A DNA stretch of 59,465 nucleotides, from the IMG/VR virus record IMGVR_UViG_3300032212_000005, positions 1-59,465 of that record; one strand, 5' to 3'. Made by a program: the position numbers and the translations under genes. The number at the start of each line of letters is the position of its first letter. The first letter of the stretch is position 1. The notes beneath the pieces were generated by a model. It was given only the letters and a program-made list of their open reading frames with translations, did not search any database and was not told the origin of the DNA. Source of the stretch: a virus. Taxonomy: Duplodnaviria; Caudoviricetes. Positions 6,279-52,467 of the stretch are shown here, piece after piece.

Positions 6279-6311
6279 TTGCGATAATACATTCGTGTGT
6301 TTATATTGCAA
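6279..6311. promoter_or_regulatory. Overlapping divergent sigma70 promoters
   Basis: + strand TTGCGA(6279)-17-TATATT(6302); - strand TTGCAA(6311)-16-TATTAT(6289); framed by the inverted repeat GTTGCGATA/TATTGCAAC. Confidence 0.7.
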
Positions 6312-6354
6312 CTCGTAACGCAAAAGAATTTAAACAAGGGAGGATTCTTTTACG

Positions 6355-11053: not shown

Positions 11054-11489
11054 TTTGGAAAAAATCAGTGATCACGTACACGATACTTTGCCCGAAGGGC
11101 TAGTTTATCTTCTAGCACTCTTCCCCCCAGGTGCGGAAGGGGAAACAGAAAAGCAGGCTTACATACTGTTTAACTGTGAGAATACGGAACTGCCCTTATT
11201 GTTTGCCACAATTGCGGGTAATATTGAACGTGAAGACACACAGTTGTTTGAATTTAATAAAAAAATAGGAAATACCATGGCCGGAAAAGATATGTTTGAT
11301 TTTGAATCAATGTCAGAAACCATTAAGCATTTTGGTGACAAGCAACTGGTCGTCAATGACCCAGTTCAGGGAGACATGGTGATTCCTGTCACACTGAATG
11401 ATTTGGTTCGATTCACGCACGAAAGCGGCGCTTGCACCAGCAGACATCAGACTGCAGCAGAGCTACAAGGAACTGAGGAGAACGAATAG
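11043..11489 (+). CDS. Hypothetical protein
   Basis: GAGG RBS; packed operon. Confidence 0.65.
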   Translation: MEIDLEKISDHVHDTLPEGLVYLLALFPPGAEGETEKQAYILFNCENTELPLLFATIAGNIEREDTQLFEFNKKIGNTMAGKDMFDFESMSETIKHFGDKQLVVNDPVQGDMVIPVTLNDLVRFTHESGACTSRHQTAAELQGTEENE

Positions 11490-11704
11490 TGTACTTCTTA
11501 GCTATCATCACCGTAATCGCACTGATTATTGTCATATACGGTTACTGCAATGCCAGGCAATTTGAGCTGTTTGTTTCTGCGCTGGATAAAGAAGAAGAAT
11601 ATGATTCTTTCTCTTTTGTCCTGGGACTTGGAGTAATGTTGATTTGTTTTTTTATAGGTTTGTGGGCCGGTTCTGTGTGGTATGGCTTAAATCCTATCTG
11701 GTAG
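11489..11704 (+). CDS. Two-TM small membrane protein (holin candidate)
   Basis: Two hydrophobic segments in 71 aa, near the spanins. Confidence 0.5.
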   Translation: MYFLAIITVIALIIVIYGYCNARQFELFVSALDKEEEYDSFSFVLGLGVMLICFFIGLWAGSVWYGLNPIW

Positions 11705-29829: not shown

Positions 29830-31919
29830 GTATCCTAACGAGGTCGCCAAAACTGGCGAAACTCAGGGATTCTTATATTGATTTTCGAAATGGATTAGAT
29901 CAGCTAACGCCTAAATGGAAAGCCAAAGATTCCGTTCAAGACTGTCTTAATTTTGAGATGGGTGTTGAGCTGGGATATCAGGATATTGAAGGCTACGAGC
30001 GATATGATGGGCAAACAAGCCCTTCTAGCGTTACTTATTCAATCCTGGATGTCACTATCAGCGGGTCTGTTTCTGTTGGTGACACTATCACTGGTGTCAC
30101 ATCATCAGCAACGGCAGTTGTTCTGGCTATTGTCACATCAGAAGATCCTGATTATCTGGTAGTGACAAAAATTACCGGCACTTTCGAGCCAGGCGGAGAA
30201 GTTCTGAATGTAAGTGGCGCGCCTGAAGCTACTAGCCTTGGCTCACCTTCAGCTGACGCAGCATCAAACAGCATGCTTTCCGCACAGTACAAGAATCTGG
30301 CAGCCGATGAATATCGTTCAGATATCGCTGCTGTTCCAGGTTCAGGTCAAATCCGAGGTATTTGGATGCTCGATAACATTGTTTATGCGTTCAGAGATAA
30401 TGCCGGCGCCACAGCCTGCGTGATGCACAAGGCTTCAACAAGCGGTTGGGTCGCGATTGATCTAGGCCTGGAACTGTCTTTTACGTCTGGTGGCACTTAT
30501 GAAATCGCAGAAGGCAACACAATCACAGGCGCCACATCTGGCGCCACAGCCGTTATTACCCGTGTGGTGCTGGAATCTGGATCCTTTAGCGCTGGTGATG
30601 CAGCCGGGCGCGTAATCTTCGCTTCTCAGACCGGAACATTCCAAGCAGAGAATTTAGATGTTGGCGGAAACCTCAATGTAGCGACCATTGCCGGCGATTC
30701 CGATGCAATTACTATGTTGCCTGGGGGGCGGTTTGAGTTCTACAACACGAATTTCGGCGGTTTGTTTGGCGAAAAGCGCATTTATGGTGTTGATGGTGTA
30801 AATCGCGGCTTTGAATTCGACGGTACAGTATTTGTCCCCATTGAAACTGGTATGAGTACGGACAATCCGCTCCATGTGACCGAGCATAAAAACCATTTGT
30901 TTTTTTCCTATTCTGGATCCGCACAGCATTCAGGTATCGGTACGCCATACATTTGGTCGCCTGTATTTGGCGCAGCTGAGTTAGCTACTGGCGATCAGAT
31001 CAATTCGTTTATTGTTGAGCCTGGGTCGGAAATCGGTGGCACCCTGGCGATTCTCAACGCCAATCGAGTGAATATGCTCTACGGTTCATCCAGTGCTGAC
31101 TGGAATCTCGTGAAGTTCAGAAAAGATATCGGAGCATTGCCGTATACGGCGCAGTCCATGACCAGTACGTTTTTCTTTGGTGATCGAGGGATAACGGACC
31201 TACCGACAACTGAGCGGTTTGGTAACTTCCAGTACGCGACACACAGCCGGATGATTCAAAAGTTCATCAATGAAAAGAAAATCAATGCGAGCGCTTCATG
31301 TATCGCGAGAGATAAAAACCAATACCGGGTCTTTTTTAGTGATGGATATGGCCTTTACACCACATTGAACAAAGATGGCTCGGTAATGGGCATGATGCCA
31401 GTTTCTTTTATTGATGAAATCAACTGTATGTTCTCCCTGGAGAATAACAGCGAAGTTGAAGTAATCATGTTTGGGTCAGATAACGGTTTTGTTTATCAAT
31501 TGGACAAAGGCACATCATTTGATGGCGAGCCCATATCGGCATTTTTGACAACTCAATTTGATTTTGGCGGCTTACTCCGATGGTTAAAGCGTTACAGCAC
31601 GGCTGCTCTCGAAGGAGAAGGCACGGGATACGCGGCTTTTGATTTTAGCTGGGTAATTAGCTACGGCAGTTCTACCAAGCACCAAGAAAACCCAAAGAAC
31701 AAAGTGATTGATTTGACTAGTGCGAAATGGGACACCGGAGAAACATGGGATAGCGGTGGATTTTGGGATGGCCAGTCTATTAAACCGGCAGTTCTCAAGT
31801 TAACTGGAAGCGGCGAAAATATTGCATTCACGATTGCAAAGAATTCTGATTACTTCAGCCCGGTACGGTGGTCTGGAATCTTTTATCAGTTTTCATTGCG
31901 AAGAAAGTTGAGGAACTAG
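29826..31919 (+). CDS. Tail nozzle / P22-gp10-like beta-propeller
   Basis: EGYERYDG, HKNHLFF, KNQYRVFFSDG, GTSFDGEPI; internal duplicated beta domain. Confidence 0.75.
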   Translation: MSILTRSPKLAKLRDSYIDFRNGLDQLTPKWKAKDSVQDCLNFEMGVELGYQDIEGYERYDGQTSPSSVTYSILDVTISGSVSVGDTITGVTSSATAVVLAIVTSEDPDYLVVTKITGTFEPGGEVLNVSGAPEATSLGSPSADAASNSMLSAQYKNLAADEYRSDIAAVPGSGQIRGIWMLDNIVYAFRDNAGATACVMHKASTSGWVAIDLGLELSFTSGGTYEIAEGNTITGATSGATAVITRVVLESGSFSAGDAAGRVIFASQTGTFQAENLDVGGNLNVATIAGDSDAITMLPGGRFEFYNTNFGGLFGEKRIYGVDGVNRGFEFDGTVFVPIETGMSTDNPLHVTEHKNHLFFSYSGSAQHSGIGTPYIWSPVFGAAELATGDQINSFIVEPGSEIGGTLAILNANRVNMLYGSSSADWNLVKFRKDIGALPYTAQSMTSTFFFGDRGITDLPTTERFGNFQYATHSRMIQKFINEKKINASASCIARDKNQYRVFFSDGYGLYTTLNKDGSVMGMMPVSFIDEINCMFSLENNSEVEVIMFGSDNGFVYQLDKGTSFDGEPISAFLTTQFDFGGLLRWLKRYSTAALEGEGTGYAAFDFSWVISYGSSTKHQENPKNKVIDLTSAKWDTGETWDSGGFWDGQSIKPAVLKLTGSGENIAFTIAKNSDYFSPVRWSGIFYQFSLRRKLRN

Positions 31920-31921
31920 AC

Positions 31922-33787
31922 ATGACAGATTGGTTTAACGCTGCGGGGGTTCCCGGTAATAGTGCCGGCATTGTTTCTCAGACTGTGAGAAATGAATTTG
32001 CCGCGATTCAACAAAACATATCAGAGAAGTTGCCTACATTGACCGGAAATGGAAGCAAGGCAATCTTTGTCAATTCTGGTGCTACCGGGCTTGAAGCTGT
32101 TTCCGCTACCACTGCAAGAACTAACCTGGGCTTAGGAACTATCTCTACCCAGGACGCTGACACGGTTTCAATCACTGGTGGTGCAGTTGATGGAACAGTA
32201 ATCGGCGCAATCACACCTGCAGCTGCTAGTTTCACTGCCCTATCAGCTTCCACCACGCTGGCCGTAACAGGACAAACGACCCTTCAGTCTCAGATTGACA
32301 TAGGTGGCAATGCGACAGGCGCAGCGTCAGGTCGGGGGCAGATAGGTGCCGGAACAATCAACGGCCTCCAGCTTCTCGGGCAGGGTACAACTTACGACGC
32401 CCACTTGGCTAGACGCGATGGCTCGATCGCTCTTGGTGTAGACGCCAATACGCAGAATATCTCGGTGGTAGGTACATTTATCGCCAACGTGGGCGGCGAG
32501 CGTTTCGGTGTCCAGCAGGACGGGGCTGGCATGTACTTCGGTGGCCTAGATGCTGGCGACGTTCGTGTCACTGCAAACAATACGACGCACCTTACATTGG
32601 ATGGCTCGGGTAATACCTCGGCCGCTGGTTCGATTACTGTCCCACACACCGCAGGTTATTACTTCGGTAACGGCTATCTCGGAGAGCCTGATACTAACTG
32701 GGGATGGTTGCTTAAACCTGATACGGCCTCGGGAGGCACAGCGAATGGGGCGATTCTGGACTCCTCATCAGCAGCCTTGCTGTCGTTCAATGACTCATCT
32801 AAAGCCGCCACGTTTGCCGGAGGTGTGACCGTAAACGCTGCCCAGTTAAAGACCACAAGCTCAGCGGCCAACTTCGGTCTAGAGGTGGAGTCTACTGCCG
32901 CATCAGCGGGTCTTGTAGTTAAGTCTGCATCAGCTTTAGCAGGGTACGTATTCTTCTACGCTGGCGGTACAGAATCCGGTCGTATCACTGGGTTCGGTGG
33001 TGGTGGGGGTATGGACTTCGGTTACGGCTCTTCCGCTACGAAAGCCTTCGGGTTTGATAGCGGGGGTAATTCCACATTCAATGGTAGGGTCACGGTAAGT
33101 GCTGGATCCAACAACGGTCTAGTGGTGAACGACGGTACCGTCAACGGCATCGCGTACTGCAGCACAACACTGACCAACTCCTTCGCCATAGGCACGACAA
33201 CGGCTCACCCTACAATTATCGGGGCGGGTAACACGTTCCCTATTATCACGGTGAACACGGATTCCACGGTTAGTCTTGCAGACGACCTCGGTTTGTCTAA
33301 CGACCAAGGAATCTACTGGGGATCTTCTGACCGAGCGTTTGTCGCTGGTAACGACGGGGCAAGCAGTGACGGGTACGTTAGCCTCGGTGTCAACAGCGCA
33401 GGCTTGACCTTGGACACCAGCAATAACGCGACGTTCTCAGCATCCGTCAATATCAACAACTCGACTGCTCCGGCTTCTGGCGTAGAGCTTCAGGTAAGTG
33501 GTAATGCTTTGGTTGACGGCAACCTTAGCGTTGGGGATGGAAACACTCTGGGCACCGCTACTGCTCTTACTCATACAGGTATTTTGCTTACTGGCGCGAC
33601 AACCTGTGCCGTGAACTTCAACGCGGCGGCTAATACCGGATCTATTGTCTTCGGAGCCTCTGGCGGCGGAGCAGGCGCGGATGACTTGGCGTTTCTTAAC
33701 TTTAACGAGATATTCCTGAATCTACCTACATCAGCAGGTACAACAGGCTCTCTCTGGAATGATGGCGGGACAGTGAAAGTATCGTAG
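31922..33787 (+). CDS. Tail fibre / receptor-binding protein
   Basis: VRNEFAAI anchor, ARTNLGLGTISTQDA, G/T/A-rich repeats, ends LWNDGGTVKVS. Confidence 0.85.
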   Translation: MTDWFNAAGVPGNSAGIVSQTVRNEFAAIQQNISEKLPTLTGNGSKAIFVNSGATGLEAVSATTARTNLGLGTISTQDADTVSITGGAVDGTVIGAITPAAASFTALSASTTLAVTGQTTLQSQIDIGGNATGAASGRGQIGAGTINGLQLLGQGTTYDAHLARRDGSIALGVDANTQNISVVGTFIANVGGERFGVQQDGAGMYFGGLDAGDVRVTANNTTHLTLDGSGNTSAAGSITVPHTAGYYFGNGYLGEPDTNWGWLLKPDTASGGTANGAILDSSSAALLSFNDSSKAATFAGGVTVNAAQLKTTSSAANFGLEVESTAASAGLVVKSASALAGYVFFYAGGTESGRITGFGGGGGMDFGYGSSATKAFGFDSGGNSTFNGRVTVSAGSNNGLVVNDGTVNGIAYCSTTLTNSFAIGTTTAHPTIIGAGNTFPIITVNTDSTVSLADDLGLSNDQGIYWGSSDRAFVAGNDGASSDGYVSLGVNSAGLTLDTSNNATFSASVNINNSTAPASGVELQVSGNALVDGNLSVGDGNTLGTATALTHTGILLTGATTCAVNFNAAANTGSIVFGASGGGAGADDLAFLNFNEIFLNLPTSAGTTGSLWNDGGTVKVS

Positions 33788-33808: not shown

Positions 33809-33949
33809 ATGAAAGAACTCATGATGTATTTTGAATGTTTTGCATTTTTCGTTGCGTATTTGTGTGAATTTGGATTCAAGGTTATGCTAAAAACAAGTTC
33901 GAGATTTGAGCAAGTCGCTCTCCCGAATTGTCCGCGTGTTGTGGACTAA
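33809..33949 (+). CDS. Possible 46-aa hydrophobic peptide (not in track)
   Basis: MKELMMYFECFAFFVAYLCEF...; fills the gap and ends 3 nt before the PAS gene; weak RBS. Confidence 0.3.
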   Translation: MKELMMYFECFAFFVAYLCEFGFKVMLKTSSRFEQVALPNCPRVVD

Positions 33950-33952
33950 GGC

Positions 33953-34540
33953 ATGATTAGAATGAATGACACAGCATCGGCGGTATTGAAGCAGATAGGG
34001 CCGGTAGCGGCAGTATTGCTCGGTATGATGTACATGTACTTCAACCCCACGCAAGAAACCCAATTCAATTCAAATCTGATGGCGAGGCTTGCTGAGACTG
34101 AGAAGAAAGCTGATTTCTGCCTGAATGAGAGTGCAAAACTCCGCCAAGAGTTAGATGAAGTCTCCTTCAAATTCACGCTGTTTAAAATGGGGCAGGATTC
34201 ACTTCCTTTTCCTACCTGGCAGAAAGATGCGACGGGCAAGATCGTTTTTGCCAATGCAGCGTATGAGAGGATGTTTCTTGCGCCCCGTGGCTATTCGTTA
34301 AGTGATTACATTGGCCATAATGATTATGCTGTATGGGACAAAGAGACTGCAGATGCTTTTACCGCAAATGATAATTATGTTCTCGAAACAGGTCGAATTA
34401 TTGAGGTTCAAGAACCGATTGATCAGCCCGAGGGTGGCGCAAAGCTTCGCAGAGTGTTCAAATATCCAATCAAGATAAACGGGGTGAGCTTCGGCACAGG
34501 TGGCTTGGTGATTCCCAGTAGCAAGATAGCGACCGAATGA
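33953..34540 (+). CDS. Membrane-anchored PAS-domain protein (TM + coiled coil + PAS_4-like)
   Basis: DSLPFPTWQKDATGKIVFANAAYE...YIGHNDYAVWDKETADAF..ND..VL...KYPI...GTGG. Confidence 0.88.
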   Translation: MIRMNDTASAVLKQIGPVAAVLLGMMYMYFNPTQETQFNSNLMARLAETEKKADFCLNESAKLRQELDEVSFKFTLFKMGQDSLPFPTWQKDATGKIVFANAAYERMFLAPRGYSLSDYIGHNDYAVWDKETADAFTANDNYVLETGRIIEVQEPIDQPEGGAKLRRVFKYPIKINGVSFGTGGLVIPSSKIATE

Positions 34541-34827
34541 TATTAGTCGAATGGCCAGTGACCGCAATTGTATGGTTTCTATCGAATCTAGCCATTACCG
34601 CTGCCTATTGTTTTTTCATTGCGATTCACGGATTAGAAAACGTGCCCAGGCGACTCACCAGCGCATTTATCTATTCGTGCGGGATTGGTCATCTTGGCAT
34701 TGCTGGATTTTTGATTTTCCTAAACCACAACTATTTCGCTTTTTTACTGATCACTATTTGGGATATGGGAACGGCTTGCGCCAGTGTGATTGCCGCCTAC
34801 CACTCTTGGAAATTAGCGAAAACATAA
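34537..34827 (+). CDS. Stand-alone ethylene-receptor-like three-TM domain
   Basis: SNLAITAAY / AFIYSCGIGHL / DMGTACASVIAA match ETR1 SDFFIAIAY / AFIVLCGATHL / KVLTAVVSCATA. Confidence 0.75.
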   Translation: MILVEWPVTAIVWFLSNLAITAAYCFFIAIHGLENVPRRLTSAFIYSCGIGHLGIAGFLIFLNHNYFAFLLITIWDMGTACASVIAAYHSWKLAKT

Positions 34828-37437: not shown

Positions 37438-37902
37438 TTGGAAGCAGCAATCCAAAAAGAGCAATTCACAGGCATTTGTACGGCTGACATGAGCCATTTG
37501 CACATGGTTGGTTTGCTTGGATACAACGCGCTTAAGGCGGACCCAGCACCACGGCAAGTCGTTTCATATGATAAGTGTAAGGCATTGGCCCAAACTTGCA
37601 TTATGAAGCCTGAGAATTTCTGCGAGGTTGCTGTGATAGATGGTGAGGTTGTCGGCGCATTATCCGCACTGGTGCATGAACAGATGGTATTTGAGCGTAA
37701 GCAAGCCTCGGTGGTGCAGTGGTATTGCACTGTGCCTTCTTATGGCGGTTTGTTGATGCGCCGGTTTGTGAATTGGGCTAAACCTCAACGAAAGATTAAG
37801 TGCATTGCTTTCACTGAGGAAATTGGAATGGATGAGCGCATTGGCCGAGTCATTGGCCGAATGGGCTTTCAACAAGTTAACACCTGGGTATATTGGAAAT
37901 GA
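37438..37902 (+). CDS. GNAT-fold acetyltransferase-like protein
   Basis: VAVIDGEVVGAL, WY....GGLLMRRFVNWAK, RMGFQ. Confidence 0.7.
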   Translation: MEAAIQKEQFTGICTADMSHLHMVGLLGYNALKADPAPRQVVSYDKCKALAQTCIMKPENFCEVAVIDGEVVGALSALVHEQMVFERKQASVVQWYCTVPSYGGLLMRRFVNWAKPQRKIKCIAFTEEIGMDERIGRVIGRMGFQQVNTWVYWK

Positions 37903-38369
37903 GTAACTTAGAGCTAGAGCAATTACGTTATTCGAGCGATAGCGACAGTACGCTAAGTACGCTTCACAACATTGTAAATTTCCGCCCGGAATTTTTGTGC
38001 TATTTACTTGAAGATGAATACCGAGAAGTGAAAGTACCGGGGGAAACACGGATACCAGCTGGCCGATATGAAATTAAGCTACGTACTGAGGGCGGCATGC
38101 ACGGCAGGTACAAGGATAAATACCCATGGCATAAAGGCATGCTATGGCTCCAGGACGTACCAAATTTCACATGGATCTATATTCACCCTGGCGTTACTGA
38201 TGACCATTCAGAAGGGTGTTTATTGACTGGTGATGGACAGCGACAAAACAAGACAAAAGCAGGGAAAAACTATGACACGATGGACGCATATCAGCGTATC
38301 TATGAATTGATTTCAAAAGCAATTCTTGATGGCCGGAAAGTCTTTATCACCATAAAAGACTATGCATAA
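37899..38369 (+). CDS. DUF5675 family protein, putative endolysin
   Basis: CYLLED..RE.KVPGETRIPAGRY, LQDVPNF..IYIHPG....SEGCLL.G. Confidence 0.85.
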   Translation: MSNLELEQLRYSSDSDSTLSTLHNIVNFRPEFLCYLLEDEYREVKVPGETRIPAGRYEIKLRTEGGMHGRYKDKYPWHKGMLWLQDVPNFTWIYIHPGVTDDHSEGCLLTGDGQRQNKTKAGKNYDTMDAYQRIYELISKAILDGRKVFITIKDYA

Positions 38370-39765: not shown

Positions 39766-40396
39766 TTCTTTACGCAAGGGTGTTGTGGCGGGTGCTACAA
39801 CCGCAAAGGAAATCTATCAGGATGACGCGAAATCGCAGCGCCAGGCTAAGATCATGGCCGCTCGAGATAAAGAACTAAGAGCCAATCAGGTTGAAGACCG
39901 CGAAGATAAGCAATCCTATGACGCAGAGCAAAATGCGCTAGAGCGAACGGCCAGGAATTCGCGTCCATCTGAAAAACTTGCTGAGGTCCAACTAGAAGAC
40001 CTTCAAGCGTATCGCAAAGCGACATCACCAGAAGAGCAACTGGAAGCCGCGAAGAAGATCATGGCCGCCAGTGGTCGACCCATGGAAGGTGATACTAAGC
40101 TAGGTAAACGCTTTATTGGTGGTTCAAAGGGTGTATTCGATACCGAAACCCAAGAATGGATTGATCCACCACAAGACCGAACCAGTCTGGTAAAAGAAGC
40201 AGGGAAGATTGCTCGTGACATAGATGCTAATCAAGTTGATATGCGCGGAAACCGGCTACCGGATGCCAAATCTTACGATGTGATTCTCAAGGATATATTG
40301 AGTTCTTGGGAAAAGAATATTGGAGGAAAACCAGCTGCAACTGGTGGTAATGGTGATAAAGTAGGAGGCAGTGATCCGCTTGGCCTATTTAACTAA
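39749..40396 (+). CDS. Internal virion/ejection protein
   Basis: AGGAG RBS; ends DPLGLF, typical just before giant ejection proteins. Confidence 0.7.
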   Translation: MGSLLNSLRKGVVAGATTAKEIYQDDAKSQRQAKIMAARDKELRANQVEDREDKQSYDAEQNALERTARNSRPSEKLAEVQLEDLQAYRKATSPEEQLEAAKKIMAASGRPMEGDTKLGKRFIGGSKGVFDTETQEWIDPPQDRTSLVKEAGKIARDIDANQVDMRGNRLPDAKSYDVILKDILSSWEKNIGGKPAATGGNGDKVGGSDPLGLFN

Positions 40397-43300
40397 TGAA
40401 ACTATCAGAAATACGGGATAAATACCCGCAGTACGATGATCGTACAGACCAAGAGCTAGCCGATGCCTTTTACGATAAATTCTATTCCGAGCAATTAGAC
40501 CGGGAAGATTTTTATACACGTCTTGGCTATACACCTGAAGTCGCTGAAGAACCAGTTTCAGAGTTAGAAGAAACCCCTACCCAGGTTGATGAAAACCCTA
40601 CCACCCCATTAGTTGCGGTTCAGGAAGAGCCACAGAAACCTGAGCCAATAGCTGTTAGACAGCGAGAGCCAGAGTTAGACGGTGGATTCCCATACAAAGA
40701 GCCAGAGCAAGTCGCGGCAGAAATCGAGCCGGCAAAGGTTGATGCGGCGCCAGAGCCCGACATTGCTTACCAGGCAACCGGCAATCCTGATGAAATCATT
40801 GATCTGCAGAAGCAAATTCAAGATGCTCGCGCCAAAGGATCGACATCCAGGGTAGCGCTTGAGCGCTTAAAAGAGATTGCTGGCGGTGCATTGCCTAGAC
40901 CCCTTCAGGCTGAATTGGATTCAGCACCACCATTAGAGGGATTGTCTGAAGAAGAAATGCTTGCTGAACCGCCAGCAGAGAAGAAAGTTGGCAACATTAC
41001 TGACTGGGATGCTTTCGAGCGCGACCGTTTAAACCAAGAAGTTATTGATTGGCAAGAATTCATAACTCCCAGTGATGGTGATGGCTGGGCGGAAATCATG
41101 CAGAAGACCGCAGAGAACATCCCTACGAGGTTTAAAAAGATTGCTGGCGGCATGATTCAAGCACTGGGCGAATCGCTTGTTAGCGATGTTGGTGCGTCTT
41201 TAAACCCAGGTATGGAAGCGGCATTAATGAATGGATCCGAGGCACTGGGTCTATCTCGTGAAGAATACGCCAACTTGCTGAAGGACAATTTTATATCCCA
41301 AACCGGCGAGAAGATTGCTGGCGAAGCGATTTTTGACCTTGAAGCCAATGCGCCAGATATGGCCGAAGGATCACTGCCATTTTATGTATCGTCGACACTG
41401 GGCGCAGTGGTTGAAATGGTACCGGCACTCGCTGGCAGCTTATTTACCCGTAATCCGAATGCTGGTCTGGCTATCATGTCGGGCCAGGTATATGGCGATC
41501 AATATGCTGAGTCGAGGGACCAGGGGCGTACACCTGATGAAGCGCAAGCAGATGCCTTTGTTCGTGGCGTATTGTTTGAAGCATTGCCCGAAAGACTGCC
41601 ATTAGGCGTTTTGACAGAAATGGCGACCGATGGCCGGTTACTGAAAATCCTCAAATCAGCTGGTGCTGAGGGATTACAAGAGCCAGTAACCCAGCTATTG
41701 CAAGTTTCCTATGATGCTGGGATTGATCCAAATGACACGGTAGCAGAAGCACTGCAACGTCCAGAGGTTTGGGCGGGTGTTCGTGATGCCGCGATCATTG
41801 GTATGGGTGCTGGTGGTACGCTTGGTGCGGTAACAGTTGGCATTGAGGAAGTTGCAAACAGGATATCTACCTCGGAATCCGTTGATGATGCTGTATTGGA
41901 AGCAGAAACAATACTCAATGAGGCAGAAGAACGCTCGAAATTAAGAGTAAACGATGTCCCGGGCGTGACAGATGCGCCTGATATCTCCCTGGATGCTCAA
42001 GCGGACGATATTATTGAAGATATCGAGTCTGTTACACCGGATATCTCTTCTGATACAAAGGTTTCAAGTGTTCAGGGCAAGATTGTTAATCGTGAAATAT
42101 TCGAGGAAGTTCGGGCTCTTCAAGAAGAAACAGGAAGAGAACTAGAGATTAGCGAAATCCAGAGAAGTTCTCGGATTGGATTTAACCACGCTCAAAATAT
42201 CAAAGAGGCTTTAGAAGACGATTCCGACACAACATTCCTAGATACCGAAACATTCAATAATGAAATTATAGAGCGACGTAAAACAAACAAAGGCAGTGAT
42301 ATTGCGCCTGAATCTGGAAGAGTGGAAACGGATGACGTTGAGCCTGAGATAGAACCCGTTACCCCTGAAATAGAAACTAAGACTACTCCGTACCAATCCG
42401 TACCAGATTCAGCTTTCAATGGTGATTTAGAAGAAGGATTGAACCGCGTCTTTTTAAGCGATGAGTTTAAAGGCGATTCGGTAGAATTAAGTGGCCAAGG
42501 ATTTACTGCTGATGAAACTAGGTCGCTGGAAAGCGTTGGTTTGGCAGAGAATGGGAGAATGTCTGCCGAGCAATACAATGAGTGGATGAAAGAAAGAGGT
42601 GCAAGACTCTCTCGACCTAGCACCACAAAAGAAAAATCACCGACTGCGGATAAAGACGCTCGAGGGTTGAGGGCAATCCGAGAAGATTTTGGTAATAACC
42701 AAAACAATCCAGAAGTTTTGGAGGCGCTTGCAAATGAAGCGTGGGCTTTGGATGAAGCTAATACTGGGCCTAGCAAGGCTGCCGGCAATTTATACAGTCA
42801 AATCAATGACAGACTTACTGAATTGTACGGGGCATCTAACAGAACTAGCCCGCAAAACATTGAAAGTTGGGCGATGAACTATAATCCGAAAGGTACTTTA
42901 ACGGTAAACCCTGACCAAGAACTTGGCGGAATAATTGATCAAAACCCACAAAACGGCACTTGGTTTGCAATCAGTCACAGAGATAATTCTGTGGTTGAAG
43001 GGCTCGAATCAAAAGAAAAAGCTTTTGAGGTTATTCAGAAGAGCAATGAGGTATATCTAGCCGGTAAAGAAGCGGCAACGTCACCTGAAAACAATCTCCC
43101 GGAGCCTACCCAGGCACAAAAGGAAGCTGGCAATTACAAAATGGGCAAAGTCGAGCTCAACGGCTTTGATATCTCCATTGAAAATCCTCGCGGGTCCTCT
43201 CGTTCAGGCAGGGATCCTGACGGTAATGATTGGTCCATTACCATGGCTAACGATTATGGCTATATCCGAAGAACCCGGGGCGCCGATGACTCAGGAAGCG

Positions 43301-46300
43301 ATGTTAAAAGCGACATTGAGCATGTCGACGTATTCATTGGTAAAGACTTGGCGAGCGATAAGGTTTTTATTGTTGATCAATACTACGATGGCGAGTTTGA
43401 TGAACACAAGGTAATGATGGGCTTCTCGACCGAGGATCAGGCCGCGCAAGCCTACCTGGATAACTACGATGAAGGCTGGGAAGGGCTGGGCGACATTACT
43501 GAAATGAATGTCGAGGAATTTAGGGAATGGGTTTATAACACTGAAAAAACCAGCGCTCCCGCTACCGGCAACACGGAAAACGCACAGCAAGATATTGAAA
43601 CTGAGACTCAAGGTGAGCTGACAAAGCTCTATCAAGACATAGTAGATGGTGAGGTTCGTGTCGAAGATGCCATTGATAGCCTTGAAGAATTCGATGATTT
43701 GCCTACAGAAGTTGAAGTGGCTATTGGTAAGTATCGCGCCGAACAGCTTGAAGACTCTGAGGTTTGGGGCGAGCGCGGCGACCGGGAACAATGGGATAGT
43801 GAATTCATTGAAGTAATAGCGCCTCAGTTATTGGAGGACCGCCCAGGCATCAGGGAAGCTATCATTGAAGTTGATTATGATGCAGTGACCTATCCAGAAG
43901 GAGAAGGAACGACCGTTGCAGTTTTCGACACAAGCAATATTGTGCAATCGGAAGCCAGCAACAAAATCAAAGCGCACCACGGATCCCCGCATAGCTTTAG
44001 CAAGTTCACAACTGAGAGAATAGGTACAGGTGAAGGAGCCCAAGCCTTTGGTCATGGTTTGTATTTTGCCGAATCGGAAGGGGTGGCAAGATCGTACCGG
44101 GATAATCTAGGCAAGGGTACAGGGATCTCTGAAGACGATGTAATGGCTCGCGCTCTTGATGCTCGCAACGGTAATTTTGAAGCTGCAGCTAAAGATATGC
44201 GTAATCGCGGCGATAGAGCGATGCAAGGCGAAAACCCCGAGGATGCTAGTCGCTTTTATAGAATGGCTACGCAGTTACAAGCTAAGTATGACCCAAGAGG
44301 AAAGGTGTATACGGTCGAGTTGGATGTCCAATCAGATGAATTGCTTGATTGGGATCTGCCTTTTAAAGAACAAAGCGAGTTAGTGCAGAAGGCCCTGAAA
44401 GATATGCAGGGCTCCGGGAAAAGACTAGAGGAAATGTCTCGTGAAGAGATAATTGCCGTGCTCGAGCATAATGACCCGGATGGTGATTATTCTGATGCTG
44501 CGTCAGCTGTTCAAGGCATGGACCCATTAACCAGGGAAGAAGCGCTAGAGCTGGCGACCGAAAAAGAGATTGATGAATATAGGTTTTCTGAGATAGGCGA
44601 TAACCAAACCGGGAAAAGCATTTACCGACAGTTAACCTCTCAAGAAGGCGGAGGTAATGTTTATAGCAACCCTGCTCAAGCCAGGGTAAGCGCTAGATTG
44701 CTCGAACTTGGCGTGAAGGGCACTAAGTACAAAGACGGATTTTCCAGAGGGAAAGAAGGTGATGATGGCACATACAATTATGTGATCTTCAGCGAAGATT
44801 TAGTGAACATTGTTTCAGTGGATGGCGTGGAAATGTCTTTAAGTGAAGTGAACGAACTCACTGAAGGCATGAACGATGAACAAATTGATCAATTCTATAA
44901 CGAGGTTTTTGAAGGAGAATCAGATGTTGTCGAAGAAGGAGTTTCAGAAGAGAGTCAGGAAGGCCAAGAGCAGGAAGGCATCAATCAAGATGTCGAAGGA
45001 TCTGATACAGTCGAGGGCAGTCAAGAAGCCAGCGAGCCAAAAGGCGAAGTAAAGCTAAAATCCAATGGCGATCCATTCGCTTCGGAGAAGAGCGCCAGGG
45101 CGTCAAAAGTATTTAAAAACGCTGATAATGCCAGAGTGGTTGAGGTTGAAGGTGGCTATGGCGTTGAAATTATCGAGTCATTTGTCGCCACACATTACGT
45201 AAAAGAATTCGGTGAAATGGTCGACCTGATGGCGGTTGACCTTGAAAAAGGCATGTTCATCGAGTCGATAGGCCAAACACCGCAGTATTACAATCTTTCC
45301 GAGGTTTGGGACTATCAAACCATGGAGCGAGTTGAAGCAAAACCGGAACCAGAGCGTGTGCCGGCTTCTGAATTTTCGGATTACACCAAACAGCAGCCGC
45401 TTGATGAATACGGCGACTATTGGTTTAACCGCTCTTTACACCTGAACTACACCAATCCAGAGGAGCGCGTATTGATGGAGCGCGTTGTTAAGGAATCCGG
45501 TGAAGTGCTATCGCTGAATCAGGCTGATGCTCGAATATTAGAATGGGAAGCGGAAATGGACCGCCAGCGTTTGTCTGGTGAAAACCGCAATAAGATAGTC
45601 ATTAGCCTATTTGATGAAACCGGAACATGGGCTAATCCATGGGCTCTTGCTGGTTATGATGTTCGCAAAGTCGATTTGGCTAGTGAAGGCGTCAATGTCT
45701 TTGACATTGATATGGATTGGTTGCTCGAGAATGGTTTTGTCGACGATGACGTTCATATGGTGCTGGCAGCATGCCCATGCACGGAATTCTCGGTTGCCGG
45801 TAACAGATACAAACCCGGTGGAGTTGACGAGAAGCAAGGTGCCCAGGCAAAGCAAGATCAAGCAGTCGCGCTGGTTCAGCATACTTTGCGCGTCATCAAT
45901 GCGATGAAGCCTAGATATTGGGCCATTGAAAACCCAGTAGGGACCATTCAGAAGCTGTCTGGCTTGCCTGATGCTCGATTATCGTTTCATCCCAGTCATT
46001 TTGGATTCCCGTACACCAAGAAAACAATGATATGGGGCAATTTCAATGCTGATCTTCCGACCGCAAACGTCGACAATGTAAAACGTGAAGTTGATAAGCG
46101 CGATGATGGCTACTTTGATCCCCTGACTAAAGAACTTGTTCCGACACCGCTAAGAAATGCTTTAGATGCCAGCAAGGCCAAGCATATCGGCGGTTCATGG
46201 GCATTTGATTTGCGTGGCGACGTACCAGAACACAAGCGATTGCGATCAGCGACACCAGAAGGATTCTCATATGCTTTCTTTATGGCGAATTCAGGCGCGA

Positions 46301-47523
46301 GCATTGAAACAGAATTAGAGCAAGAGGCCATGAAACTGGCTAGAGCAGCGGCTTCTGACATGAACAAGAAGCAGGCAGCTATTGAAATTCCCAAACTCGA
46401 AAGCGCTTTTGTGCTGGGCGCTACCCAGGAAGAAGACTATAACAGCTACGCATTTGAAAACGATTTACAGAGGACCATGGCGGGATATGGAGCTCAACTT
46501 AATTCAGAGTTCGAGTTAAACGCCACGGACCCACACGGGCGAAATCAGGCAGCTATAGAGAAGGCTCAAGCCACGTTTGAAAAGGCTGAACCTGTGCCAA
46601 TTGTAGAGCCGACACTCACCGAAAAACCAAAGGCTAAGAAGAAATCCACGGTACTGGATACGACTGTAGATTCTGCCTTGATACTGGCAGCCAAAAAAGG
46701 AGGTTTAAATGCGGATTCGTTTATTGCAGAAGGCCTGGATCCAGAATCGGTAAAGGATAAGAGCTTTAACAATCAGGTATTTGGCAATCCCATATTCCGA
46801 AAGAATGGCGGTATGACGCCAGATGGATTTGCAGAACTATTGCAGCAATGGGGTTATGTTCCATCAGAGATAAGCGCCAATGAAGCGCTCGACATTGCCC
46901 TGAATGAAGCAAACGGCATAGAGACAAAGTATCACCCTGATGGGATTGAGCAGCAAATCGAGGCTGAAATAGCCGCAATGAAGGAGCAGCCCGAACAGGA
47001 TTATGACGCTAATGATTATGAAGACCTGACCGATGGCATGAGCGAAGAGCAAGTCCCGGCATTTAATGGCATTGTCGAAGGTGATTTGTGGGATTTGGCT
47101 GAATCATTACCTCAAGATCCTAATTACCAAGAAGTTTATGATCAGGCATATGAAGAGTATTCGGGCGGCTTTGAGCTTACTCAGCAAACACCGGAAGAGA
47201 TACAAGCAGCCGAGCAAGAAGCCCAGGCGCTTATTGATGCCCAACGAGCTGAAGAAGCAAAGGCGGCAGCAGATGAGGCCATTGGAGACTTCACGCTAAC
47301 TGGCTCTGACAGTACGGCGGATATCGCGGCGGCACAAGGTCAGACGGATTTATGGGCGACCATTGATCAAATTGACGCTTCTCAATACGATGTCATGGTT
47401 GAAGTGGTTGCAGAAGATACCGGCGATGTTTATGAAATGCCGCAAAATGCAGAAAAAGCGCTTAGACGACTTCGGAAAAAGAGAGATACTGTGCAATCTA
47501 TATTGGAGTGCATTCGAGGATGA
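40396..47523 (+). CDS. Giant polyvalent internal virion protein (InPase-like, ART-PolyVal-like and C5 DNA MTase domains)
   Basis: IRDKYPQYDD N-terminus; ISIENPRGS..DYGYI..DEHKVMMGF (~43100-43550); HHGSPH..GTGEGAQAFGHGLYF (43975-); SLFDETG, ACPCTEFS (~45775), IENPVG (~45928). Confidence 0.9.
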   Translation: MKLSEIRDKYPQYDDRTDQELADAFYDKFYSEQLDREDFYTRLGYTPEVAEEPVSELEETPTQVDENPTTPLVAVQEEPQKPEPIAVRQREPELDGGFPYKEPEQVAAEIEPAKVDAAPEPDIAYQATGNPDEIIDLQKQIQDARAKGSTSRVALERLKEIAGGALPRPLQAELDSAPPLEGLSEEEMLAEPPAEKKVGNITDWDAFERDRLNQEVIDWQEFITPSDGDGWAEIMQKTAENIPTRFKKIAGGMIQALGESLVSDVGASLNPGMEAALMNGSEALGLSREEYANLLKDNFISQTGEKIAGEAIFDLEANAPDMAEGSLPFYVSSTLGAVVEMVPALAGSLFTRNPNAGLAIMSGQVYGDQYAESRDQGRTPDEAQADAFVRGVLFEALPERLPLGVLTEMATDGRLLKILKSAGAEGLQEPVTQLLQVSYDAGIDPNDTVAEALQRPEVWAGVRDAAIIGMGAGGTLGAVTVGIEEVANRISTSESVDDAVLEAETILNEAEERSKLRVNDVPGVTDAPDISLDAQADDIIEDIESVTPDISSDTKVSSVQGKIVNREIFEEVRALQEETGRELEISEIQRSSRIGFNHAQNIKEALEDDSDTTFLDTETFNNEIIERRKTNKGSDIAPESGRVETDDVEPEIEPVTPEIETKTTPYQSVPDSAFNGDLEEGLNRVFLSDEFKGDSVELSGQGFTADETRSLESVGLAENGRMSAEQYNEWMKERGARLSRPSTTKEKSPTADKDARGLRAIREDFGNNQNNPEVLEALANEAWALDEANTGPSKAAGNLYSQINDRLTELYGASNRTSPQNIESWAMNYNPKGTLTVNPDQELGGIIDQNPQNGTWFAISHRDNSVVEGLESKEKAFEVIQKSNEVYLAGKEAATSPENNLPEPTQAQKEAGNYKMGKVELNGFDISIENPRGSSRSGRDPDGNDWSITMANDYGYIRRTRGADDSGSDVKSDIEHVDVFIGKDLASDKVFIVDQYYDGEFDEHKVMMGFSTEDQAAQAYLDNYDEGWEGLGDITEMNVEEFREWVYNTEKTSAPATGNTENAQQDIETETQGELTKLYQDIVDGEVRVEDAIDSLEEFDDLPTEVEVAIGKYRAEQLEDSEVWGERGDREQWDSEFIEVIAPQLLEDRPGIREAIIEVDYDAVTYPEGEGTTVAVFDTSNIVQSEASNKIKAHHGSPHSFSKFTTERIGTGEGAQAFGHGLYFAESEGVARSYRDNLGKGTGISEDDVMARALDARNGNFEAAAKDMRNRGDRAMQGENPEDASRFYRMATQLQAKYDPRGKVYTVELDVQSDELLDWDLPFKEQSELVQKALKDMQGSGKRLEEMSREEIIAVLEHNDPDGDYSDAASAVQGMDPLTREEALELATEKEIDEYRFSEIGDNQTGKSIYRQLTSQEGGGNVYSNPAQARVSARLLELGVKGTKYKDGFSRGKEGDDGTYNYVIFSEDLVNIVSVDGVEMSLSEVNELTEGMNDEQIDQFYNEVFEGESDVVEEGVSEESQEGQEQEGINQDVEGSDTVEGSQEASEPKGEVKLKSNGDPFASEKSARASKVFKNADNARVVEVEGGYGVEIIESFVATHYVKEFGEMVDLMAVDLEKGMFIESIGQTPQYYNLSEVWDYQTMERVEAKPEPERVPASEFSDYTKQQPLDEYGDYWFNRSLHLNYTNPEERVLMERVVKESGEVLSLNQADARILEWEAEMDRQRLSGENRNKIVISLFDETGTWANPWALAGYDVRKVDLASEGVNVFDIDMDWLLENGFVDDDVHMVLAACPCTEFSVAGNRYKPGGVDEKQGAQAKQDQAVALVQHTLRVINAMKPRYWAIENPVGTIQKLSGLPDARLSFHPSHFGFPYTKKTMIWGNFNADLPTANVDNVKREVDKRDDGYFDPLTKELVPTPLRNALDASKAKHIGGSWAFDLRGDVPEHKRLRSATPEGFSYAFFMANSGASIETELEQEAMKLARAAASDMNKKQAAIEIPKLESAFVLGATQEEDYNSYAFENDLQRTMAGYGAQLNSEFELNATDPHGRNQAAIEKAQATFEKAEPVPIVEPTLTEKPKAKKKSTVLDTTVDSALILAAKKGGLNADSFIAEGLDPESVKDKSFNNQVFGNPIFRKNGGMTPDGFAELLQQWGYVPSEISANEALDIALNEANGIETKYHPDGIEQQIEAEIAAMKEQPEQDYDANDYEDLTDGMSEEQVPAFNGIVEGDLWDLAESLPQDPNYQEVYDQAYEEYSGGFELTQQTPEEIQAAEQEAQALIDAQRAEEAKAAADEAIGDFTLTGSDSTADIAAAQGQTDLWATIDQIDASQYDVMVEVVAEDTGDVYEMPQNAEKALRRLRKKRDTVQSILECIRG
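44924..45052 (+). CDS. Possible nested 42-aa basic peptide in the +1 frame
   Basis: GAAGGAG RBS and ATG; MLSKKEFQKRVRKAKSRK... Confidence 0.3.
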   Translation: MLSKKEFQKRVRKAKSRKASIKMSKDLIQSRAVKKPASQKAK

Positions 47524-47840
47524 GAGCTGATCAGATAGAATCCAGGGGCGGACGCAGAAAGCGCAGAGCCCCGAAATCTCCGCCAACAAGCGCAAGCGTT
47601 GCTGATGTCGTTGAAAGTATGCCTGCGTTACCCGCCAGTTTATCAAAAGAAGAAATCACTGAATTGGTGGCGTCTGCAGTCAACCAGGTTGCCGATAAAA
47701 TATTAAACGCCCAATCCAAACAGCCCAGCAAGCGAGTCAAAAAAATCACTCACCAGGTAAAGCGAAAAAAATACGCAAATACCAACATCCCTTTAATGGC
47801 AGAGCTTGTTAGCACTATCACTTATGAGGGTGACGGTTAA
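47520..47840 (+). CDS. Hypothetical protein
   Basis: ATGA coupling to the giant gene. Confidence 0.7.
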   Translation: MRADQIESRGGRRKRRAPKSPPTSASVADVVESMPALPASLSKEEITELVASAVNQVADKILNAQSKQPSKRVKKITHQVKRKKYANTNIPLMAELVSTITYEGDG

Positions 47841-50800
47841 TGGCTTATAAGATTTCTCAGCGAGAGTCACTCGACATCGCAAGCAGCATCACACCCGATG
47901 ACCCAGATGGGTATGCTATTGGTGATATGTTGTGTTTTTTAGTTCTTGCCAAAAATACGTCTAACGCCATCACAACAGCGACACCAGGCTGGACAGTATC
48001 ATCTAGTGCAAAAGGTACTTACAACAACAACAGTCTGGGGGTCATTTATAAATCTGCCACGGTGGACAGCGTAAGTGAAGGTGGTGCTGGCGAAACAATG
48101 CCTCTTATTACAGTTGGTAGCTCAGTAGACATATACGTTCTCGCTGTTGCACTTGGTGATGTTCCGTCATCGTCTGCTGTTGACCTGGAGCTTCATGGCT
48201 CTACCGGGTTCACTGGACTAACACAAGGGATACCAACTGGTACTACTGGTGCGCCAAACACATTTGGTCTATGGCTTGCCGCGACAAGTAACTGGGCCGA
48301 AACAATACCTGAGATCGGGTCGGGACCACTGGGTAGTGATCGAAATGTTCAAGGGTCCACACAAGCAGGTGTGTCATCAGGTTGGTGGTTTGAAGAGGAC
48401 TCAGGTGTAACAAGCCCATCCAGGGAATTCTGGTTGTTAGACGCTGTGAGAAATCGTCACTGCATTGTCATCTCTTTTAAATCTGACACTGCCGCAATAA
48501 AACCTGTTCGCTGTGACCTCGACACTGTTGCACCCTGGGAGTTGATCTGCGCGTTTCACGACAACGCAGGTTACAAAGGTTATACGCTCAAAGACATATC
48601 GGCAGATGTCACCGCACTAGACACAATCAGCACGACATCGGTTGATTCCAACTCGGATAACAATCTTGGTTTCGGGCTTAACTTGTACATGCCTGGTGTG
48701 AGATCGCAATCAGTCAGCACAGCAGTTGGTACCGCGTATGTTCGGGAAATGACACTAGGTGCAACAGAAGATCTTTCGGCAGCGGGAACCAAGATATTCT
48801 TCTATGTCCGTTACGGTAGCGGTACGGACTTAACACGAGCAGATATTTTATCTAACCACGGACTCATGGTTGGTCTTCGGTCTGGAGGGACAGGCTCGGA
48901 GCAGTATAGGTTTTTTGACGCTGCGGCATTTGACACTTTCCCTGTTGCTGGTGCGATGCATATTGTGGTGATAGACCCTGCTGATATAACGAATAGGGTG
49001 GGGTCAGACATAGGTGGTGGCAGTTTTGACTTATCGGACATTCGCGGCGTTTGCACAGCATTTCATAGTGCGTCCACTTCGGTCTCCCAAATATACCTCG
49101 ACTACTGCGGTAAGCTGAACAGACTGCAAGTGATAGGAGGGGATGACTCTGATCCAATGCACTACCTTGATTGGTCAGCCGCCAAAGAACAACTAAGGGA
49201 TTACGATCAACTCATTGAAAAACTGGGTGACGCATACGAGACAAAGATTAGTATCCAGATCGGTGACGGTTCATCGGTCACCCACTTCCATACGAATGGT
49301 GAGAACTTCTCGTTTCCAAATCCAGCGGACTTTGATGCTAAACGCATTCAGTACCAAGTCTATGACAGCTCACATAGCATTGTCTTTGAGTTAGATACAG
49401 GGAGCACCGCAACGTTTGATGCAGTTATTGATTTTAAAGGTGGTACTCTGGACCTAAGTGATGCGGGGAACGTTAACGCGACCTGGACGTTCAACGGCGG
49501 AACATGGAAAAACGTAGGCACTTGGAATGTATCTGATATTGGCGCAATCGGTAACATGTCTATTGTCGATAGTGCGGAGATGCTCGATCTCGCATTGGAT
49601 CTAACATCAGGTGTGACCCTAACTAACACGACGGTCCACATTACTGGCGCAACTCAAGCCGCACTACAATCTAAGTTTAACGAGTATGCCCGTTGTATAT
49701 TCAATGGTAATGCGTCGGTCGGACTAGAGATAGAGTATACGGGTGCGAGTACCACCACCATTGCACTGACAGCTCCTACGAATATCCAAATAGACAAAAC
49801 GACTTTTGCAGCGGCAGTCGCTGTAGCTTGTACAGTGGCAGTAACAACAAACGAGACAATAGGCGATGCCTCAGTTTCAGGATCTGCCACTTCCCTGACA
49901 GAAGTTGCGCCCACCTTCGACCTGGATCTGACTAGTAACGTAGCAGCAACATTCAGGGTGTTTAATGAGGCTGGTGGTGCCGAACTGTTCTCTGCATCTG
50001 CATCAACTTCAGAGTCATGGACCCACGGCAATCAGACAGTCAGCATTACTTGCTGGGCGGCTGGGTATCAACAGCAAAGACGGACTGGTGTCGATCTAAC
50101 AAACGCCAATGTTCCAGTGACTTTTGAACTGGTGGACATACCAAGTTACAACGCCAGTCATGGTTTGAGCTACACGACCGATTTAACTTATGACCCACTA
50201 ACCAAAGAGTTAGATCCAGTGACAAGGCAAGAAGGTGCGGATATTAACTCTCTGCTCAATGACGCATACGACGCTCAGACAGCTCTGCATAACTCTGATT
50301 ACCCTATCAGAATGGATGGCGCTAAGACTGCAATCTTCTTAGATGATGCTTATATTAAAGTAGCATCCTTAGACAACTGGATGGGAGCAGGCTACGAGTA
50401 CCGAGATACTTCAGATGTAGTTCAGAAGCAAGCAGCGAGCTTTAAAGGACAAGGAGGTACTTGGACAGGCAACACTGCCGAATACCAAACCACGCCAGGC
50501 ACGGGGCAGACTGATGCAAGAGCTTCCGGCATCATTGATGAAGTTATCGTTATTTACACCAACGGCGGCGATGATCTTCGAGGTGGATGGGTTTGGAAGT
50601 ATCAGGTTAATGGAAAGCTGCAAGCCAGGGCAGATATTGTTGCTTTGTTTGGCGGGAATCTTCAGCCAACTGAGTATGAATTTAACATGGCAGAGGAAAG
50701 CATCACGGCGGCCACGGGTGATCCAGCGGTAACGCTGACATTCACTGATCACGGTGCTAGCCCTGTTACATGGAACGGTAAAGATTTTAGCATCACGATT

Positions 50801-52186: not shown

Positions 52187-52467
52187 TGTTAGTCACTAAC
52201 GGCATGGGTGCAAATGGTATCCTGGTAACTGCCGGTTTCGGGTACAATTCTTATCTAGATGTTGTCGTTATTGTTGTACCGAGAGAACCAGAGCCATCGC
52301 CGGGAGCGGGTGGTGGTAATTTAACATACGCATCACCGCAACAACGTACTGCCAGGGTAAGGGCTAATTTAACCCGAAAACAAATTATTGAGCAGTTGGT
52401 TCAAGAAGACGAAGAGCTAATTGCTATTATCATTTCCGCCACGGAGACATTGCTGTGCGATCTATAA
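52186..52467 (+). CDS. Small structural-module protein
   Basis: TAATG coupling; LVT.GFG, GAGGG, EDEELIAII. Confidence 0.7.
   Translation: MLVTNGMGANGILVTAGFGYNSYLDVVVIVVPREPEPSPGAGGGNLTYASPQQRTARVRANLTRKQIIEQLVQEDEELIAIIISATETLLCDL

Follow-up and report, generated by a model that had tools for sequence, protein, structure and literature searches.

A kinase-less phage variant of the ethylene-receptor membrane domain with a probable role near lysis

The window analyzed here is a complete-looking IMG/VR virus record of 59,465 bp (IMGVR_UViG_3300032212_000005; CheckV completeness 100%), in which we studied a pair of overlapping genes, one encoding a PAS protein with a predicted membrane anchor and the other a membrane protein of 96 amino acids (aa). 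Judged from its alignments, the smaller protein is a genuine, albeit divergent and minimal, member of the ETR1_N superfamily, the ethylene-binding domain (EBD) of receptors such as Arabidopsis ETR1. We regard it as a kinase-less phage variant of this family with a probable role near lysis. The pair comprises the following features, defined by open reading frames (ORFs), Pfam, hhalign and the sequence itself:

33953–34540, + strand: PAS protein gene, 195 aa, with an N-terminal hydrophobic helix, a helical linker and a PAS_4 domain (ORF; Pfam)
34537–34827, + strand: ETR1_N-like gene, 96 aa, encoding a minimal and divergent three-helix membrane protein (ORF; hhalign)
34537–34540, + strand: ATGA start/stop overlap of the PAS and ETR1_N-like genes (sequence)

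The overlap, in which the TGA of the first gene and the ATG of the second share nucleotides, suggests that the two genes are translationally coupled. Both ORFs and their overlap had been pointed out in a sequence-only reading of the window, which interpreted the pair as a split sensor, matched the 96-aa protein to ETR1 and guessed at a function in lysis timing. Its observation was confirmed, and its interpretation was partly supported. Among the points that held was the lack of a kinase: at E ≤ 1, no HATPase_c, HisKA or Response_reg match was present in the 59,465-bp record.

The 96-aa protein contains three hydrophobic helices by hydropathy, and an AlphaFold2 (AF2) model places helices at residues 7–31, 38–61 and 66–95 (predicted local distance difference test (pLDDT) score of 75.9), so that both methods agree with the three-helix membrane protein described earlier. 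Its charge distribution predicts an N-out/C-in topology, and its C-terminus is basic. A three-helix membrane domain is common to ETR1 (Arabidopsis), SynEtr1 (Synechocystis) and AzoEtr1 (Azospirillum). For comparison with bacterial EBDs, AzoEtr1 was traced in eight Azospirillum genomes through a primer sequence given in the paper on that receptor (PMC11819568), and from this starting point ETR1_N was found in 22 of the 301 Pseudomonadota genomes sampled, with 24 matches that all lie in open frames of 401–1002 aa. Our alignment comprised 23 of these domains; L034 was left out because no open CxxxH frame was found in it. Using hhalign, the phage family matched this bacterial alignment at 95.6% (E 1.1e-8) over 81 columns spanning all three helices. 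The score of 49.4 compares with 12.5 for the reversed alignment and a maximum of 15.6 over 30 column shuffles, and the three blocks that the sequence-only reading had matched to ETR1 are those that hhalign aligned to bacterial ETR1_N. The family also matched gp65 of the Maribacter phage Molly (96.2%, E 2.1e-9), which itself passes the Pfam ETR1_N cut-off with 60.9 bits. In the reverse direction, a search of six-frame bacterial genomes with the phage-family profile returned the ETR1_N place as the top match in two of five cases, with E values of 0.0027 and 0.047 at that place.

The resemblance could in principle be convergent or compositional, with the ORF encoding an ordinary hydrophobic peptide. 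On its own, the 96-aa protein has ETR1_N (PF25487) as its sole Pfam match, and this match reaches only 13.2 bits (E 0.11) where the cut-off is 27; structure and feature searches gave no specific match, and in phmmer the 'SCGxGHL' motif also drew unrelated repeat proteins. We nevertheless consider this explanation very improbable, and on the profile evidence it is already largely refuted: the profile–profile match extends over three helices and lies far above the reversed and shuffled controls, bridging members exceed the Pfam ETR1_N cut-off, and each conserved polar residue maps to a functional ETR1 position.

With the 96-aa query, phmmer run exhaustively over 1.84 billion representative sequences revealed five genuine relatives of 91–105 aa. 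The family is small and very rare, with six clusters among about 15 billion proteins. Five of the six small-family members have Pfam matches to ETR1_N (best E 1.7e-5), and for two relatives, P0012 and P0020, a PF25487 assignment had been precomputed. The six small proteins share eleven invariant columns: N17, I20, Y24, F44, C48, G49, G51, H52, D76, T79 and S83. All eleven residues are also present in Molly gp65, a protein of 289 aa annotated as hypothetical. A further 17 longer phmmer matches were repeat proteins matched in several stretches, which we set aside as spurious after inspecting four of them. Units of the form 'AFxxSCxxGHLxxAKWL' in these repeat proteins (P0003–P0023) snare searches for the CGxGH motif.

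Other searches added no members. A word-indexed protein search with the 96-aa protein returned only itself, and no match was obtained by tblastn of this protein against GenBank phages, by blastn of the pair region against phages or by IMG/VR scans with the single proteins of the pair; with the family motif, neither metagenomes nor genome contigs yielded any relatives. No longer, fused relatives were found, which is weak evidence for a stand-alone domain, and the ORF itself stops after helix 3. At the structural level, searching PDB sequences with the family profile yielded no relevant match, the AF2 model retrieved only generic helical bundles from the PDB in Foldseek and none at E ≤ 0.001, and ESM Atlas scores were at most 0.83, under the usable range. 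No solved ethylene-receptor membrane-domain structure turned up in our PDB searches.

Three conserved features of the 96-aa protein align with mapped positions of ETR1:

34585–34587, + strand: Asn17 codon, at the ETR1 Asp25 position (alignments; Asn in seven of seven subfamily members)
34678–34692, + strand: Cys48-Gly-Ile-Gly-His52, at the ETR1 Cys65/His69 copper ligands (C, G, G and H invariant in seven of seven)
34762–34785, + strand: Asp76-x2-Thr79-x3-Ser83 of helix 3, with Asp76 at ETR1 Lys91 (invariant in seven of seven)

Across all seven subfamily members N, Y, C, G, G, H, D, T and S are invariant, and with them the CxxxH motif that the sequence-only reading had highlighted. The helix-2 Cys and His one turn apart, the helix-1 Tyr and the helix-3 Thr/Ser occupy the same columns as in ethylene receptors; in the hhalign alignment, Y24 pairs with Tyr and D76-x2-T79-x3-S83 with Lys-x2-Thr-x3-Ser of bacterial ETR1_N. 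Unlike ETR1, the phage protein has Asn for Asp25, Asp for Lys91 and Gly for Thr68, has lost Pro36 and has a short loop between helices 1 and 2. Reportedly, Wang et al. (2006) listed Tyr32, Ile35, Pro36 and Ile62 among the residues needed for ethylene binding. Of these, the Tyr is present in all seven members and Pro36 in none, Ile62 is kept in six (Val in the seventh), and Ile35, given a one-residue indel, is also kept in six (Leu in the seventh).

According to the available text of PMC10266040, Cys65 and His69 of ETR1 helix 2 are the copper ligands, Asp25 forms a polar bridge to Lys91, and this pair is important for high-affinity ethylene binding. The same text gives Asp at the Asp25 position in 93.55% and Asn in 3.67% of 1,221 EBDs, and describes an ETR1 D25N variant that retained copper while high-affinity ethylene binding was no longer detectable; a second source, as far as its available part goes, puts D25N ethylene binding at ∼100-fold weaker (PMC11971883). 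The Asp25/Lys91 pair is Asn/Asp in seven of seven subfamily members, and because of this swap strong ethylene binding is doubtful. Ethylene sensing as such, which the comparison with ETR1 had brought into play, was thus not borne out. Judged from the conserved ligands, the phage subfamily probably still binds metal, and it should not be called an ethylene receptor. Among viral ETR1_N proteins as a whole, the residue pairs at the Asp25 and Lys91 positions differ greatly, being D/K, N/D, N/R, D/E, D/H, G/H, D/G and A/Q.

The upstream partner has two recognizable parts:

34196–34441, + strand: PAS_4 domain, residues 82–163 (Pfam PF08448, E 7.4e-10, 39.5 bits, exceeding the gathering cut-off of 23.1)
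33992–34042, + strand: predicted membrane anchor, residues ∼14–30 (hydropathy 1.5–1.64)

The sequence-only reading had described this protein as a transmembrane segment, a coiled coil and a PAS domain without output. The PAS_4 domain, a single moderately hydrophobic N-terminal segment (residues ∼10–30, Kyte–Doolittle 1.5–1.6) and the absence of any output domain found in the 195 aa agree with that description, whereas the coiled coil is a plausible but weakly supported label: the best register of the linker has hydrophobic residues at 8 of 14 a/d positions, a weak heptad pattern, and an AF2 model from a two-row alignment predicts a long helix with a pLDDT of only 38.7. The best PDB sequence matches of the PAS domain were the LuxR-type PAS regulators 6ugl, 6kju and 6ide, which we take to be VqmA, at a non-significant E of 0.03. 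An LPxPxWxKD motif is kept in five phage PAS proteins.

The pair recurs in L002, an 85-kb diverged IMG/VR contig, in the same order after a tail fibre, so that the two genes co-occur in a second phage. The L002 PAS protein has 189 aa (52% identity) and is followed, 2 nt on, by a 105-aa EBD-like protein (36% identity). Between the two phages, the PAS anchor and juxtamembrane region (residues 13–35) are nearly all identical and more conserved than the PAS domain itself, which would fit a contact inside the membrane. A complex prediction of the PAS and 96-aa proteins from custom alignments gave no answer (score 0.00) and speaks neither for nor against binding. A metagenome scan for the PAS pair found only a 2.2-kb contig of the L002 phage. 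Directly 5′ of the pair lies the following gene:

31868–33787, + strand: tail-fibre-like gene; contains a block conserved in the L002 fibre that lies 5′ of the pair there (translations)

In the window, a 165-nt gap between the tail-fibre and PAS genes holds a 46-aa hydrophobic ORF (33809–33949). L002 lacks such an ORF, its fibre and PAS genes directly adjoining each other. A promoter and terminator scan around the pair found none above shuffled expectation that would separate the pair from its neighbours.

These distributions do not support a split sensor. Unlike ethylene receptors, the 96-aa protein has no fused GAF, PAS or kinase domain; the PAS domain is a separate, upstream-encoded protein with its own anchor, and the gene is phage-encoded and lies in a late gene block. 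PAS is also a neighbour domain of the EBD in AzoEtr1, going by the available text (PMC11819568), and the gene order in the window, PAS then EBD, is the reverse of the bacterial EBD–PAS–kinase fusion. Moreover, no EBD-like gene was found in the three other phage genomes with PAS relatives (phi14:2, MA9V-2 and Kabachok), nor any PAS_4 in the five other EBD-bearing viral records searched. The PAS relatives thus lack an EBD in three of three phage groups and the EBD records lack PAS_4 in five of five. Because the window's lineage is the only one in which the EBD and PAS genes were found together, the pair is not a simple split receptor; rather, their separate distributions suggest that both gene types associate with lysis regions independently and were combined only in this lineage.

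Such domains are present in other phages as well. A bacterial EBD profile identified 11 IMG/VR contigs with ETR1_N proteins, and tblastn identified eight records of the cultured Maribacter phages Molly and Colly. The short kinase-less loci are L042–L051 from IMG/VR (proteins of 135–270 aa) and, from GenBank, MT732451.1 36990–37859 (L052:3932–4801). All viral proteins tested (nine tallied and three scanned) pass ETR1_N; two of them are kinase fusions (HWE_HK, HisKA_2). The other viral ETR1_N proteins have 135–356 aa (seven of them 135–186 aa) and at most a short C-terminal helix. A second IMG/VR scan with a viral-EBD profile returned the same contigs again, and the Molly domain as query returned only Molly. 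The presence of kinase-less ETR1_N proteins in the cultured Maribacter phages and in some ten IMG/VR contigs is a new finding of this analysis. The statement of the sequence-only reading that no phage system like this is described was too narrow in this respect; it agrees with our finding no paper on a phage-encoded EBD in a literature search that covered journals other than subscription ones. PHROGs v4 has no family for any of the seven phage ETR1_N proteins searched.

Molly/Colly gp65 and the short IMG/VR forms are, like the window protein, phage-borne and kinase-less, and Molly gp65 shares its Asn...CGxGH...Asp signature. In contrast to the window protein, Molly gp65 carries an additional C-terminal domain of ∼165 aa in which no PAS could be detected, and gp64, encoded next to it on the upstream side, is a membrane and helical protein that likewise lacks PAS. 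When the PAS alignment was compared by hhalign with gp64 and with the C-terminus of gp65, no relation emerged. Most IMG/VR forms also differ from the window protein, having CGxTH, the pairs D/K, N/R, D/E or D/H and a short C-terminal helix.

The surroundings of these genes give circumstantial support to the earlier guess of a function in lysis timing. The Molly gp65 gene lies directly 5′ of the phage's amidase gene, which in the available text of the phage's description is the only lysis gene listed, without a holin; that text places membrane proteins nearby and makes no mention of ethylene (PMC8776804). An ETR1_N gene is followed 1.1 kb downstream by a GH108 endolysin gene in L045 and, likewise at 1.1 kb, by a DUF5675 gene in L048, whereas in L049 a muramidase gene lies 1.8 kb upstream. 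In L002, DUF5675, a membrane protein and Rz-like spanins are encoded from 1.3 kb downstream of the pair. Globally, an endolysin-type gene was present within 4 kb of 6 of 14 ETR1_N loci compared to ∼2.4 expected (uniform model, P ∼0.015), although this test is crude and the loci, which include both the window and L002, are not fully independent.

Relatives of the PAS protein likewise lie in lysis cassettes of Bacteroidota phages. They were detected by tblastn in 11 phage records. In Cellulophaga phage phi14:2, the PAS gene gp089 overlaps the gene of a GH19 endolysin (L004:2788–3977, gp089–gp088). In Chryseobacterium phage MA9V-2, gp249 is flanked by a GH108 gene and a lipoprotein gene on one side and by two overlapping membrane/lipoprotein genes on the other (L003:1827–4625). 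The PAS proteins of phi14:2 and MA9V-1/2 have the same anchor–linker–PAS_4 layout as that of the window, with ∼25% identity over 63–94% of the length, and, as in the window, each of their genes is translationally coupled to the next; the downstream partner is a GH19 endolysin or a single-helix membrane protein and not ETR1_N. Seven of the records are Brevundimonas jumbo phages; in the one examined, Kabachok, the PAS protein has no anchor and its gene overlaps that of a tail-anchored helical protein. The two overlapping genes of the MA9V-2 cassette (gp247–gp251) encode a membrane protein and a u-spanin-like lipoprotein with a C-terminal anchor.

In the window itself, the terminase, portal, capsid, adaptor and tail genes are all on the + strand, and the candidate lysis genes are as follows:

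37893–38369, + strand: DUF5675 protein, likely a peptidoglycan hydrolase (endolysin), 3.1 kb 3′ of the pair (PF18925, E 8.1e-22; Tlde1, E 0.0011)
10282–11053, + strand: i-spanin (10282–10737) overlapping a lipobox o-spanin (10532–11053) (phrog_214 Rz-like spanin, E 7.9e-5; lipobox, membrane segment)
11489–11704, + strand: 71-aa protein with two membrane helices, an alternative holin candidate (hydropathy; no family match)

DUF5675 proteins are labelled L,D-carboxypeptidase or peptidoglycan hydrolase in two phage records. Directly 5′ of the DUF5675 gene, a 154-aa ORF (37438–37902) matches phrog_1249, which carries an acetyltransferase annotation (E 2.6e-6). The spanin genes and the 71-aa ORF lie just 5′ of the small-terminase region and 27 kb from DUF5675; the lysis genes of the window are thus dispersed.

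We tentatively propose, as the best of several readings though one less likely than not, that the pair forms a membrane sensor which depends on a metal and influences late infection and the timing of lysis. We infer this from what was observed directly, namely the homology, the conserved ligands, the presence of the pair in two phages, the absence of a kinase and the gene context of the relatives. The 96-aa protein would reside in the host inner membrane, probably with its N-terminus out and its C-terminus in, and a metal ion, copper by analogy, would most likely sit on Cys48 and His52 of helix 2, with Asn17 and Asp76 as possible second-shell or extra ligands. The ATGA overlap may keep the 96-aa and PAS proteins in a fixed proportion. 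As neither protein has an enzymatic output, such a module must act by protein contacts in the membrane, and it could tune the time of lysis as an accessory late-infection sensor, in the manner of an antiholin or a holin regulator, the signal being perhaps a small ligand, copper or the redox state.

Small inner-membrane proteins encoded in the late region, such as lambda S105/S107 and T4 T with RI, are known lysis clocks. T4 RI, a membrane-anchored sensor domain that retimes lysis without enzymatic activity, serves as our working model for the pair, although the holin/antiholin clocks have no sequence relation to it and no counterpart of the metal site or the PAS domain. Sensing by a phage PAS protein has a precedent in VqmA-Phage of phage VP882, a receptor with PAS and DNA-binding parts that sets off lysis in response to an autoinducer of the host. 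The window protein is likewise a phage-encoded PAS sensor; unlike VqmA-Phage, it is membrane-anchored and has no DNA-binding domain.

Several observations weigh against a sensor of lysis timing. Eight of the 14 ETR1_N loci have no endolysin-type domain within 4 kb, the contexts covered being those of family members other than P0009, P0010, P0012 and P0020. The window's pair lies 3.1 kb from DUF5675, which is a lysin by annotation and by its L002 context and not by proof, and as much as 23 kb from the spanins, and a separate two-helix holin candidate is present. The nearest capsid relative, MW202426, has xhlA and an endolysin after its tail genes and lacks the pair; accessory genes of unrelated kinds are commonly found behind the tail-fibre gene; and the restriction of EBD–PAS co-occurrence to the window's lineage points the same way.

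The 96-aa protein could itself be the effector. Class I holins have three membrane helices, an N-out/C-in topology, about 90–110 aa and a charged C-terminus; their genes adjoin the endolysin gene, and their permeabilization of the membrane is lethal and saltatory. With its three helices, 96 aa, predicted N-out/C-in topology and basic C-terminus, the ETR1_N-like protein has the helix number, topology, size and charge of this class, features that are generic and not diagnostic. It might thus be a pore-former, a class-I-like holin or viroporin gated by metal or ligand, with the PAS protein as its regulator. The position of the Molly ETR1_N membrane protein directly 5′ of the only recognized lysis enzyme, with no holin listed in the available text (PMC8776804), would fit, as would the conduction of Ca2+ by plant ETR1 and ERS1, enhanced by ethylene, as the available part of a preprint has it (10.1101/2025.10.20.683334); that claim, however, concerns full-length plant receptors. 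We consider a pore-former unlikely, given that the 96-aa protein matched no holin family and that L002, L045 and L048 encode other small membrane proteins closer to the lysin, in addition to the two-helix candidate of the window. A broader and more speculative version is that phages repeatedly captured the EBD, shed its kinase and employ the bare, copper-containing three-helix bundle as a ligand-gated membrane switch for lysis, be it a holin, a viroporin or an antiholin. The state of such a switch might be set by a small unsaturated or gaseous molecule, by copper availability or by redox, with PAS as a second input in the window's lineage. If true, which we again think unlikely, phages would possess a lysis clock of a new class, and an ETR1_N domain would for the first time have a function without phosphorelay output.

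Two further explanations would place the pair outside lysis. PAS domains and helical linkers dimerize, and the phage proteins could form heteromers with host sensor kinases or PAS proteins, plugging into host signalling and altering host behaviour, in line with the suggestion of the sequence-only reading that the pair jams a host two-component system. That ETR1_N normally drives kinases (24 of 24 bacterial matches are in 401–1002-aa frames), that an EBD–PAS–kinase receptor is documented in Azospirillum in the available text (PMC11819568) and that the phage has no kinase of its own would all be consistent with this. It is nonetheless quite unlikely in our view: only 22 of the 301 sampled Pseudomonadota genomes have ETR1_N, the altered Asn/Asp pair and the short loop disfavour mixed dimers with canonical receptors, and the genes are in the late structural/lysis block and not among early host-takeover genes. 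The pair might instead be an accessory membrane 'moron' for superinfection exclusion, copper handling or envelope modification. In both phages the tail fibre is immediately followed by the pair, in a variable slot, family members are very few, with none in the closest capsid relative, and the conserved Cys, His, Asp and Asn could just bind and buffer metal. We judge this improbable, though less so than coupling to host kinases, since both gene types recur independently beside lysis enzymes in unrelated phages; a role in lysogenic conversion is not evident, as no integrase was present among the 10 ORFs scanned in the window.

So far, work on the EBD has dealt almost exclusively with its part as the input module of receptor kinases, those of plants and cyanobacteria and a few bacterial ones. 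Kinase-less phage versions, some of them bare three helices, pose the question of the domain's own role and, as natural constructs of very small size, lend themselves to structural and copper-binding studies. The finding of two unrelated sensor-type genes beside endolysins suggests that chemical cues may tune the lysis timing of environmental phages through membrane sensors that are uncatalogued in PHROGs. As Maribacter phage Molly and its host are cultured, the idea of a role in lysis is directly testable.

Outside the late genes, the window has an early region of lambdoid type (2907–8984) with an ERF recombinase, DUF1367, DUF559 and, below cut-off, a lambda P-like replication protein. Giant 'polyvalent' proteins are encoded at 40396–47523, 47840–52186, 52455–59465 and 3–2438. 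The 2375-aa polyvalent protein contains an InPase domain, and another of at least 2337 aa, which runs off the 3′ end, contains N6 methylase, Eco57I, ResIII and helicase domains. An 811-aa ORF that is open at the 5′ end of the window carries LPD38. If the record were circularly permuted, the two open-ended polyvalent ORFs could perhaps be parts of a single gene, but a 2-nt difference separates their frames.

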